A stretch of DNA of 59,753 nucleotides. Origin: a virus. Location of the stretch: the UHGV virus genome UHGV-0209512; one strand, written 5' to 3'. The notes under the pieces were generated by a model that searched no databases, was not told the origin of the DNA, and worked only from the letters and a program-made list of their open reading frames with translations. The translations under genes were made by a program, and so were the position numbers. Positions 20,738 to 24,519 of the stretch are shown here, in pieces. Every line of letters begins with the position of its first letter. Position 1 is the first letter of the stretch.

Positions 20738-21130
20738 ATGCTATTAGTCGTCACCGGAGGTCGAGATTTTAAGCATGTGGAGTATATTTACGCTCAATTG
20801 GATAAGCTGCATATGCAAAGAAGGATAACCACACTTCGCCACGGTGACGCTGACGGTGTTGACCGCATTTGCGCACATTGGGCAGAGCGCAACGGTATTA
20901 AGACAGAAGCGTTCCCTGCCCCGTGGGACAATCTTTCACTGCCAAATACTAAGATACGGTATAACGCCAGAGGTGCTTATAATGCACAAGCGGGCGCTTA
21001 CCGCAATCAATTAATGCTGGATACTGATCCTAAACCAGATCACGCTATTGTGTTTCCAGGCGGAGCTGGTACTATGGACATGTACAGACGGATTAAAGCA
21101 TCCGGTATTCCTTACACATTAGCGGAGTAA
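20738..21130 (+). CDS. DUF2493-like (SLOG-type Rossmann fold) protein
   Basis: LLVVTGGRDF ... HGDADGVDRICAHWA ... AFPAPW ... YRNQLM ... IVFPGGAGTMDM ... GIPY matches the DUF2493 consensus as recalled. Confidence 0.5.
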   Translation: MLLVVTGGRDFKHVEYIYAQLDKLHMQRRITTLRHGDADGVDRICAHWAERNGIKTEAFPAPWDNLSLPNTKIRYNARGAYNAQAGAYRNQLMLDTDPKPDHAIVFPGGAGTMDMYRRIKASGIPYTLAE

Positions 21131-21605: not shown

Positions 21606-22028
21606 ATGATTAAACACGTCAAGCAACCAACTTTAAATACATGCGTTTCTGCGTGTTTGGCAATGATCCTTAATAAACCTGTTGAGAAGGTGATTGAGGA
21701 ATTTCATGATCGATATTACAACAACTGGGAAATAACAATTTCCGAATATTTAGTACAAAACAATGTTGACCACATCCGTTCTGTAGGCGGTGGGCGTGAA
21801 ACTATATACATGGGCGGTTTGTTTTTGTGTACTGTCCCAAGTCTGAATGTTCCTGGAGCACTGCATCAGGTTGTGATCGATACAACTAATCACAAGTTTA
21901 TTGTACATGACCCAATTAAAGGTTGGGAAGGTAAAAAGTTCTATGTTGGTCCGGACCAAGATCCTGAACAGCCAGGAGCATTTATCATTCATACTTGGGT
22001 TAAAGACGTTGAGATTGTACTTAATTAA
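21606..22028 (+). CDS. Putative papain-like cysteine peptidase (C39-like)
   Basis: N-terminal QPTLNTCVSACLAMIL (Gln...Cys) and later HQVVIDTTNHKFIVHDP resemble the Cys/His arrangement of C39-type peptidase domains; by eye. Confidence 0.4.
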   Translation: MIKHVKQPTLNTCVSACLAMILNKPVEKVIEEFHDRYYNNWEITISEYLVQNNVDHIRSVGGGRETIYMGGLFLCTVPSLNVPGALHQVVIDTTNHKFIVHDPIKGWEGKKFYVGPDQDPEQPGAFIIHTWVKDVEIVLN

Positions 22029-22090: not shown

Positions 22091-22276
22091 ATGACCAAAC
22101 TATACGCCGGATTGTTTTTATTTGCGACGTTAATGTTCGCTGGACTTTATACCTATACAGTAGTCGAACAACCTTCCACGGTTATCCGAATCTTTGCAAG
22201 TACAGGACTGTGCATCTGTCTTATTCTGTTTGTTTTATGTATTGTTATTATCCAAGACCAAAGGAAAATTAAATGA
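22091..22276 (+). CDS. Small membrane protein (61 aa, two hydrophobic helices)
   Basis: LYAGLFLFATLMFAGLY and GLCICLILFVLCIVII hydrophobic segments. Confidence 0.45.
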   Translation: MTKLYAGLFLFATLMFAGLYTYTVVEQPSTVIRIFASTGLCICLILFVLCIVIIQDQRKIK

Positions 22277-22737
22277 CAACCATTGCTTACGATGGAAAAG
22301 TATTAGCTGCGGACCGTGGAGTTATGCGCGGGGAAGTTGTGACTGCATATAAGAAAGTTCACAGCGTAAATGGGCATCGTGGACGCTTCTTGCTGGGCTT
22401 GTGCGGTCTGACTGCATTTACTGATCAGGTATTGCGTTATTTTAATAGCCCGGAACCTGTTAAGTTCCCTGATATTAAACTTTACAGCAAAGATGATGAT
22501 TACGGGCAAACTTGCGGTCTTGCGGTTACTCCGGAAGGCACTTGCCATTTTATTTACAATGATGGTACGTTGAGCGAGCCTATGCTGGACGGCTGGGGGT
22601 CGGATGGTAGCGGTTGTGTGTTTGCTGCGGGAGCTCTGGCTGCTGGTGCAAGCGCACGCGAAGCTATCGAGCTAGCAATCAAGCATACTACATGTGCATT
22701 TCTTGGCGTTGATACAATATCGTTTGAGGGTTTTTAA
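22273..22737 (+). CDS. HslV/proteasome beta-like N-terminal-nucleophile peptidase homolog
   Basis: Starts M-TTIAYDGKVLAAD (Thr right after Met, as in HslV TTIVSV); C-terminal GSDGSGCVFAAGALAAGASAREAIELAIKHTTCAFLGVDTISFE parallels HslV GSGGPYAQAAARALL...; AAGGAAA RBS. Confidence 0.5.
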   Translation: MTTIAYDGKVLAADRGVMRGEVVTAYKKVHSVNGHRGRFLLGLCGLTAFTDQVLRYFNSPEPVKFPDIKLYSKDDDYGQTCGLAVTPEGTCHFIYNDGTLSEPMLDGWGSDGSGCVFAAGALAAGASAREAIELAIKHTTCAFLGVDTISFEGF

Positions 22738-22998
22738 ATGACTACATTCAGTCACCTGATCCCACCTGCTTATCACAGCAAGGTAGTTGACCACGGGACG
22801 CATGTTGTAATTGGTGGCGAAATCTTTATCACCGATAACGAGGAAATCGCCATTGCAATTATTGACAGCACTCAGCATGACTTTATGGTTATCCTGCAAC
22901 ACGAACCCGATAACTTCACTTTTTACTCCAGCTACGGGGTCGATAAAGGTGGAAAAAGCCTTGTTAGCTGCTACATTAGCGAGTGGTTTGACGGGTAA
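22738..22998 (+). CDS. Hypothetical protein (86 aa)
   Basis: ORF in operon; no motif. Confidence 0.45.
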   Translation: MTTFSHLIPPAYHSKVVDHGTHVVIGGEIFITDNEEIAIAIIDSTQHDFMVILQHEPDNFTFYSSYGVDKGGKSLVSCYISEWFDG

Positions 22999-23554: not shown

Positions 23555-23899
23555 ATGTTCAACTCATCGAACGAACATTGGGCAGTTCTAGCGGGGTTTG
23601 CTCTGATTTCCCTCATTGGGGGATCTCTCGGTTACGTCATGCGTACAATTGACGCTGGTAAGAAGGTACGGATAAGCATTGCATGTCTTGAAGGCTTATC
23701 CGCCGCGTTCTTTGGCGTTATAATGTATGCAATCTACAGGGAGTTTAATATCAGCCTTTGGTTCGCTTTTGGCCTTGCTGGCCTATTCGCTTGGGCGGGT
23801 TCACGTGCTACGCTAAAAGCTCTAAAGTCGCTTCTAGCATCGCGGACAGGGATCAAACTCGACTCAGAGGACTGCAAACATGAAAATGATTCTAAATAA
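23555..23899 (+). CDS. Holin-like membrane protein (three predicted TM helices, charged C-terminus)
   Basis: ORF 23522..23899 trimmed to ATG 23555 after GGAGGG; three hydrophobic segments; directly upstream of spanin-like genes. Confidence 0.45.
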   Translation: MFNSSNEHWAVLAGFALISLIGGSLGYVMRTIDAGKKVRISIACLEGLSAAFFGVIMYAIYREFNISLWFAFGLAGLFAWAGSRATLKALKSLLASRTGIKLDSEDCKHENDSK

Positions 23900-24356
23900 C
23901 TTCTTCGGCTTTATAAAAGCTAAACCGCGTCTGTTTATCGAGTATTTGATGATCGGCGCGGTAGTGTTTTTATGCGGGGTGGCCGCCTACCTGTGGTCAC
24001 AGAACGAGCTTAACAAATCAAATTTAAGTTTGGCTGAAGAACGTTTAACCGTTGTGGAGAAAGACAATGCAAAGCTGGGCGAGGCTGTTGTATTTCTTGC
24101 TGCACAAAGGGAGAAGGACACGGACTCTTTCAAGAAACTAACTTCTGCAATTCAAGATGAACAACATAACCACAAGTTGCTTCAGGACAAGTTGCAGACA
24201 CTGGAGAAAAGCAATGCTGACGTCAAAGCTTATCTTAACGAGCGTATTCCTGATGATTTGCGCAGGTTGCTCGACGCAGACTCAACCTCCTCCAGCTCCA
24301 CAGATAGTGAAGGTAAGACTACCCGCACATCTACTGGTGGAATGTCGGGAAGTTGA
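23880..24356 (+). CDS. i-spanin-like protein (N-terminal TM helix + coiled coil)
   Basis: TM segment LFIEYLMIGAVVFLCGVAAYLW followed by a heptad-rich charged region. Confidence 0.5.
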   Translation: MKMILNNFFGFIKAKPRLFIEYLMIGAVVFLCGVAAYLWSQNELNKSNLSLAEERLTVVEKDNAKLGEAVVFLAAQREKDTDSFKKLTSAIQDEQHNHKLLQDKLQTLEKSNADVKAYLNERIPDDLRRLLDADSTSSSSTDSEGKTTRTSTGGMSGS

Positions 24357-24519
24357 GAAAATTCCTTTGGTTTACACAAGAGATATTATCCGACGTTTAC
24401 AGGATACAGAAACTGCTCTGACTGAATGTAAGCTAAGGGTTAAGGAAATCATACGCTATGAAGCTGAAAATGTTTCGCTTGATTTTGTAGGATCAAGCAA
24501 TTATATTCAGCCTAAATAG
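24214..24519 (+). CDS. o-spanin-like lipoprotein candidate, overlapping the i-spanin gene in another frame
   Basis: ORF 24157..24519 trimmed to ATG 24214; hydrophobic signal LILTSVFLMICAGCS with Cys, then Pro-rich QPPPAPQ; lipobox is not canonical. Confidence 0.4.
   Translation: MLTSKLILTSVFLMICAGCSTQTQPPPAPQIVKVRLPAHLLVECREVEKIPLVYTRDIIRRLQDTETALTECKLRVKEIIRYEAENVSLDFVGSSNYIQPK

Follow-up and report, generated by a model that had tools for sequence, protein, structure and literature searches.

A proteasome-like gene and its neighbours

The window, by which we mean the whole stretch of 59,753 nucleotides that was analysed, comes from a Seuratvirus-type (Queuovirinae) siphophage of E. coli and is 90-97% identical at the nucleotide level to phages phiG7, CSP1, CAjan and Seurat. 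A gene for a proteasome/HslV-like N-terminal-threonine peptidase of the PPH family is located on the plus strand at 22273..22737 (stop codon included) and encodes a protein of 154 amino acids. The product opens with MTTIAYDG and also contains ...GSDGSGCVFAAGALAAGASAREAIELAIKHT... in its sequence. A preliminary description of this DNA had drawn attention to this start and to a motif region towards the C-terminus; both are confirmed and the open reading frame reads as given there. An AAGGAA resembling a Shine-Dalgarno sequence is visible at 22261..22266 (+), 7-12 nucleotides 5' of the ATG, and reading the sequence upstream of this ATG revealed no alternative in-frame start. In a scan for promoters and terminators around the gene the counts were the same as those in shuffled controls and, being no better than chance, do not allow a transcription unit to be defined.

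Small open reading frames abut the PPH gene on both sides. The upstream one (22091..22276, +) encodes a strongly hydrophobic protein of 61 residues, probably a two-helix membrane protein, that belongs to PHROG_22841, to which no function is assigned. Its TGA stop codon overlaps the ATG of the PPH gene in the sequence ATGA, an arrangement that suggests translational coupling. This reading frame is specific to Seuratvirus, and that of 61 codons in the same slot of Hafnia phage yong3 is dissimilar. The slot is filled in Nonagvirus and in Klebsiella phage vB_Kpn2-P2 by an unrelated protein of 114-117 residues, which one record names 'late transcriptional activator'. On the downstream side an open reading frame for 86 residues (22738..22998, +) starts with the base that follows the stop codon of PPH. 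It belongs to PHROG_23528, also with no assigned function, and has homologues directly 3' of PPH in yong3 (88 residues) and vB_Kpn2-P2 (130 residues), so its product could be a partner or regulator of PPH. Across the unrelated PPH loci examined the small open reading frames immediately flanking PPH are not homologous to one another, which argues against a universal partner gene.

Two genes from PPH, at 21606..22028 (+), is a gene for a predicted papain-fold, C39-like cysteine peptidase of 140 residues (PHROG_4049, 'unknown'). Gln7, Cys13, His87 and Asp102 of this protein are invariant, its AlphaFold2 model has a pLDDT of 94.2, and the best Foldseek matches are to the C39 domains of PCAT1, LahT and ComA and to staphopain, with E-values that are weak but hits that are consistent. 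Most public records call it 'hypothetical'. Further upstream, at 20738-21130 (+), a SLOG-family protein of 130 residues is encoded (Pfam PF10686, YspA/cpYpsA-related; 65 bits against a cutoff of 28), for which 'GTP-binding domain', 'DprA' and 'phosphoribosyl transferase' are all found as annotations. By the appearance of its sequence gp11 of Providencia phage PSTCR4, encoded upstream of the C39-like gene of that phage, also looks to be of the SLOG type and similar to the 130-residue protein.

Downstream, the PPH gene is directly followed by, and co-oriented with, the lysis cassette and the terminase and head genes, with the portal gene about 3.9 kb away. Further along, at 24157-24519 (+), an embedded +1-frame open reading frame with a lipobox-like LMICAGC lies inside and overlaps that of the i-spanin (23880-24356). 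This fits an o-spanin gene that is in part nested within that of the i-spanin, an arrangement annotated for the BASEL relatives. The order small-ORF array, C39-like peptidase, variable small gene, PPH, small ORF, lysis cassette, TerS, TerL and portal is conserved in Seuratvirus, Hafnia phage yong3, Providencia phage PSTCR4, Klebsiella phage vB_Kpn2-P2 and the Nonagvirus FritzHoffmann. Phage 9g shares this layout, and the authors of that genome predicted the arm to be a late transcription region for lysis and morphogenesis; late expression would be the presumed timing for the arm that carries PPH.

Fold, active site and family

Searches with the single sequence were uninformative and profiles were required to place the protein. 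The Pfam Proteasome model (PF00227) gave 16.2 bits, below its cutoff of 22.4, no solved structure was matched in a phmmer search of the PDB, and no match at E<=1 was obtained either with the curated NCBIfam models, which include those for HslV and the proteasome, or with the PADLOC defence-system HMMs. The PHROG_1040 HMM, 'peptidase HslV family', matches residues 1-152 with an E-value of 5.6e-33 and 115.7 bits. A profile made from 16 homologues found the solved structures of HslV and BPH at about 1e-7 and next the 20S beta subunits, and in hhalign the protein aligns to E. coli HslV, the sequence of which was checked against PDB entries, with a probability of 94.8%. The AlphaFold2 monomer model (pLDDT 94.6, pTM 0.89) has the Ntn/proteasome fold. 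Where HslV has the pair of helices H1 and H2, the model shows one helix (residues 47-58) and then a loop up to the strand formed by residues 80-85; H3 (115-123) and H4 (128-138) are present.

The residues of the proteasome active site can be traced through the hhalign alignment, with all codons on the plus strand. Thr2 (22276..22278) aligns with Thr1 of HslV and, with Met1 removed, would be the N-terminal nucleophile; among 167 representatives of the family this position is threonine in 97% and serine in most of the others. Asp14 (22312..22314; 99% conserved) is the equivalent of Asp17 of the proteasome and HslV, Lys28 (22354..22356; 100%) of Lys33 of HslV, and Gly45 (22405..22407; 100%) of the oxyanion-hole glycine, Gly47 in the proteasome and Gly48 in HslV. 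Gly112-Ser113-Gly114 (22606..22614), for which conservation among the 167 representatives is 100, 85 and 99%, respectively, align with G123-S124-G125 in the G-S-G-G of HslV and correspond to the Ser129-Gly130 loop of the proteasome. Methionine aminopeptidase cleaves off a methionine that precedes threonine. Given this specificity and the precedent of E. coli HslV, it would seem likely that Thr2 is exposed by the host enzyme. With these residues in place, and with the profiles and the predicted fold in agreement, the proposal of the preliminary description that this is a homologue of HslV and the proteasome beta subunit with an N-terminal threonine is borne out, including the structural likeness to Ntn hydrolases that it had put forward as a check.

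The gene is under purifying selection, with a dN/dS of 0.023 relative to CAjan (dS 0.62) and of 0.17 relative to yong3. Together, the conservation of the residues and the low dN/dS indicate that selection maintains the protein as an N-terminal-nucleophile enzyme, and from its sequence it is probably catalytically active. Activity of a PPH cannot simply be assumed, since BPH is inert in standard peptidase assays (PMC5777263), and our literature search found no functional, biochemical, proteomic or transcriptomic study of any PPH. The inertness of BPH, together with the G-S-A that a Nonagvirus orthologue has in its G-S-G loop, might be taken to mean that PPH is a pseudo-enzyme, catalytically dead, whose role is structural or regulatory. 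We regard this as extremely unlikely, as thousands of clusters keep the nucleophile, the aspartate, the lysine and the oxyanion glycine at 97-100%, the start codon is set in every case such that threonine or serine comes after the methionine, and dN/dS is as low as 0.02.

The family to which the protein belongs is very large. An exhaustive profile search returned 11,456 cluster representatives at E<=1e-3 and 8,137 clusters at 50% identity at E<=1e-10, nearly all of 140-150 residues and matching from residue 1, and 170 relatives were confirmed in IMG/VR contigs. The 167 representatives have a median length of 148 residues and nearly all begin Met-Thr. Aligned with them, the protein is among the longer members of the family and has short insertions near residues 71-78 and 92. 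Longer relatives carry C-terminal extensions that are heterogeneous and give no clue to function; these may be what Fuchs et al. called the 'RPC' group. Among five of them (P0150, P0101, P0040, P0082 and P0056), two have Cys-rich motifs of zinc-ribbon/DnaJ-like type and three share a C-terminal module, 'RFAA.PP.TDGTIVDAYD...FLARFVQGLWYECNP'.

PPH was described by Fuchs et al. in 2021 as a family of ~140 residues from Caudovirales and prophage regions (PMC8665760), represented in their set by WP_042125023.1, that retains the catalytic triad and the oxyanion glycine, has no propeptide, is missing H2 and radiates from BPH/HslV (PMC8665760). Each of the published traits is found here: a single domain of 154 residues that starts MTT, so that threonine follows the methionine with no propeptide in between; Thr2, Asp14, Lys28 and Gly45 at the positions of Thr1, Asp17, Lys33 and the oxyanion Gly47; a predicted structure in which H2 is absent; and an origin in a tailed phage. 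By this description the protein is a member of the PPH family.

It follows that the gene is less novel than the preliminary description had it, the family having been described in 2021 and near-identical orthologues being annotated as peptidases or proteases in public records; its identification was already known. Orthologues that are 96-99% identical appear in RefSeq as 'peptidase HslV family' (CAjan gp86, Seurat, slur01 and others), and elsewhere as 'putative protease', 'ATP-dependent protease' or 'proteasome subunit alpha type-2'. The last of these names and 'ATP-dependent protease HslV', which some records carry, are misleading, and Nonagvirus orthologues are still 'hypothetical'. The family, of more than 8,000 clusters at 50% identity, comprises the smallest known proteasome-like enzymes.

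The HslU-binding surface

HslV is activated by the C-terminal tails of HslU, which enter pockets between the HslV subunits lined by Phe54, Phe57, Gln114 and Ala79/Lys80 (PMC6429459). A cluster of Arg86, Arg89 and Lys90 at the end of H2 is needed for activity and rearranges upon HslU binding (PMC5777263). In the hhalign alignment Phe54, Phe57, Ala79/Lys80 and Gln114 become Asp51, Leu54, a deletion and Phe93, respectively, in the phage protein, while the Arg86/Arg89/Lys90 pore cluster is, from the alignment and the AlphaFold2 model together, inside the deleted H2 segment. The preliminary description had seen no HslU-like ATPase encoded in the window, and this holds: the CAjan genome, which is 90% identical, has no annotated AAA+ unfoldase. 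Since the protein falls below the curated thresholds, lacks H2 and has no hslU-like gene alongside, it is not an HslV orthologue.

These observations bear on the further suggestion of the preliminary description that the protein borrows the HslU of the host or acts as a decoy. As a surrogate of HslV it would dock on host HslU, the two making up a hybrid ATP-dependent protease, or would titrate HslU, in either case for takeover of the host or anti-defence. This idea found no support and we judge it very unlikely. H2 is absent from the model, the residues of the tail pocket and the pore cluster are replaced or deleted, and the NCBIfam HslV models are unmatched. Moreover BPH, which is the nearest characterised relative outside HslV and is similarly diverged, has lost the HslU interface and does not pull down HslU (PMC5777263). 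That Table 1 of Fuchs et al. has PPH but no HslV in Actinobacteria also speaks against it, though weakly, because the Discussion of that paper has PPH in 'exclusively proteobacteria' whereas the table places it in Proteobacteria, Actinobacteria, PVC, other bacteria and phages (PMC8665760); given this conflict, arguments from the host range of PPH call for caution. Taken together, the alignment and the monomer model suggest that the protein works independently of HslU.

Genomic context and possible roles

The context of PPH was surveyed at 80 IMG/VR loci, which deduplication reduced to 63. Found repeatedly beside PPH are the genes for the large and small terminase, portal, MuF-like, scaffold and major capsid proteins, Ad1 and Neck1, and these packaging and head genes share the strand of PPH in every case. 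At no fewer than 41 of the 63 deduplicated loci PPH is adjacent to a gene for a terminase, portal, scaffold, capsid or adaptor protein with which it is co-oriented. As hallmark structural genes are over-represented on short viral contigs, the count was repeated on contigs of >=40 kb, where the context is head, packaging or virion in 16 of 24, replication (DnaB, UvsX) in two and unresolved in six. The 16 of 24 correspond to P ~2e-4 against a baseline of 30%, which is our own assumed estimate. The precise slot varies. PPH is found in the orders PPH-TerS-TerL, TerL-PPH-x-portal, portal-x-PPH-scaffold-MCP (loci L005, L021, L065 and L041), portal-PPH-MuF (L011) and Ad1-PPH-Neck1, and in Ralstonia phage QkW1 it overlaps TerL.

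Some loci are of a different kind. In the myoviruses Edwardsiella phage PEi21 (L086 7001-7477) and Klebsiella phage IME346 (L087 7001-7471) PPH is part of a moron-like insertion, a mini-cassette of 3-7 genes encoded on the other strand from the tail-sheath and baseplate genes around it. PPH is in a replication context at L007 (DnaB) and L057 (UvsX) and in Xanthomonas phage Xp10 (NC_004902.1), where it is gene 50L (L089 4233-4667) of the leftward cluster and keeps company with the transcription regulator p7 (45L), a primase and a helicase, a non-structural setting unlike that of most PPH loci. Published transcription data for Xp10 could give the temporal class of PPH.

Escherichia phage FritzHoffmann (Nonagvirus) illustrates how readily the gene is overlooked. 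Its PPH of 164 residues (MZ501068.1 57199-57693; L088 47199-47693) occupies the same slot as in the source phage, is matched by the HMM at 2.5e-30, has G-S-A in place of G-S-G, and is annotated as 'hypothetical protein' only. A tblastn search with the protein from the window at E<=1e-5 misses it, which indicates that PPH genes are annotated less often in Queuovirinae than they occur. With the family consensus as query, tblastn was less sensitive than with real sequences. There are 714 homologous records for the capsid protein and 41 tblastn hits for PPH. An argument against a role in the head based on sister phages with the same capsid but no PPH was considered and is void, because tblastn under-counts PPH and the HMM scan finds the divergent copy in FritzHoffmann.

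The contexts raise the possibility that PPH is a protease of virion morphogenesis, an Ntn-fold stand-in for a prohead or scaffold protease or an enzyme that processes a packaged or ejected protein. About two-thirds of the PPH loci are within, and co-oriented with, packaging and head genes, and some PPHs take the classical protease slot of the order portal-x-PPH-scaffold-MCP or are placed between portal and MuF. Bulk annotation of the neighbours gave scaffolds, but none of the top families is a true prohead protease of the conventional kind, and CAjan has portal, scaffold and MCP with no annotated head protease. The three hits to phrog_595 among the neighbours are most likely MuF proteins, since a MuF representative matched phrog_595 at the same E-value (1.5e-17). 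The preference for head modules with a scaffold and without a protease keeps such a role alive.

Other features argue against it. The slot differs widely between loci (PPH can precede TerS or TerL, lie between TerL and portal or follow Ad1), PPH also occurs in replication contexts and in tail-module cassettes on the opposite strand, and in the source phage the lysis cassette and terminase genes separate it from the portal gene. Many phages that use a scaffold, such as P22, T7 and SPP1, need no protease at all. In addition, the short IMG/VR contigs favour structural hallmark genes, and the literature search found no virion proteomics for PPH. On balance we consider a morphogenesis protease unlikely. 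A broader version, in which PPH is an unrecognised class of late-acting, ATPase-free Ntn-fold phage protease that serves either virion morphogenesis or the transition between lysis and packaging, is speculative and strikes us as somewhat more doubtful still. Were it true, such an enzyme might for example remove the scaffold or trim a protein associated with the portal, MuF or the capsid, and the Queuovirinae-type PPH might cooperate with the adjacent C39-like cysteine peptidase.

Among the PPH loci examined the C39-like gene is beside PPH only in Seuratvirus, yong3, Nonagvirus, PSTCR4 and Kpn2-P2, with no such pairing at the loci outside this Queuovirinae-like lineage. Being confined to five siphophage lineages, the pairing may reflect inherited synteny and not a functional module. 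Another reading is that PPH is a sequence-specific processing enzyme or a transpeptidase/ligase in the manner of connectase, here possibly one half of a two-enzyme module with the C39-like peptidase, which we hold to be highly improbable.

With its variable slot, its mini-cassettes and its occasional early or replication context, PPH looks like an accessory gene of moron-like character that is strongly conserved, rather than a core morphogenetic gene such as a head protease. The reading that we favour, with a probability of roughly 0.6, is that the protein is a stand-alone, ATPase-independent threonine peptidase of the PPH family that is unmasked by removal of its methionine and is encoded by a conserved accessory gene in the arm of the genome oriented with lysis and packaging. 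Host methionine aminopeptidase would remove Met1 and expose the Thr2 nucleophile, which with Asp14, Lys28, the oxyanion hole at Gly45 and the loop of Gly112-Ser113-Gly114 would make up a threonine peptidase site of proteasome type. Because H2 and the pocket for the HslU tail are missing, the enzyme would most likely act without HslU or any other AAA+ partner. Its targets would presumably be limited to peptides or to unfolded or specific proteins, as opposed to those of a general ATP-dependent protease, and in the source phage its translation would be linked to that of the small flanking reading frames. That host HslU is an unlikely partner, and that PPH is usually wired into the part of the genome oriented with packaging, head and lysis genes, narrows the experiments to be done. 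CAjan, Seurat and the BASEL isolates of Seuratvirus and Nonagvirus grow on E. coli K-12 and so provide a convenient genetic system.

Of the known systems, HslV (ClpQ), a dodecamer built as a double hexamer that HslU and ATP activate, differs in being about 22 residues longer and having H2, the pocket for the HslU tail, the Arg86/Arg89/Lys90 cluster and an hslU partner gene, and the phage protein scores below the thresholds of the curated HslV and Proteasome models. BPH is a stand-alone, tetradecameric descendant of HslV from Betaproteobacteria (PMC5777263). In contrast to the protein described here it has ~185-200 residues, retains H2 and carries a long, acidic loop at the pore, and it is encoded on the chromosome in stress-linked operons and is not phage-borne (PMC5777263). 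The resemblance to the prohead proteases (HK97 gp4/S78, lambda C/ClpP-like S49, T4 gp21) is one of position, with many PPHs in the head-morphogenesis module and sometimes between the portal and the scaffold or capsid genes. Fold and catalytic type are unrelated, however, and the placement of PPH is variable and not universal; with its Ntn fold and a gene 5' of the lysis cassette, the protein stands apart from the S78, S49/ClpP-like and U9 types. Connectase, an archaeal protein ligase, is likewise of the proteasome family with a reduced H1/H2 layer, and forms no degradative barrel (PMC8665760). The closest likeness is to the PPH proteins of Fuchs et al. No trait of the protein contradicts their description, and the two agree in a length of ~140-155 residues, a Met-Thr start without propeptide, equivalents of Thr1, Asp17, Lys33 and Gly47, the absence of H2, occurrence in tailed phages or prophages, and BPH and HslV as the nearest relatives.
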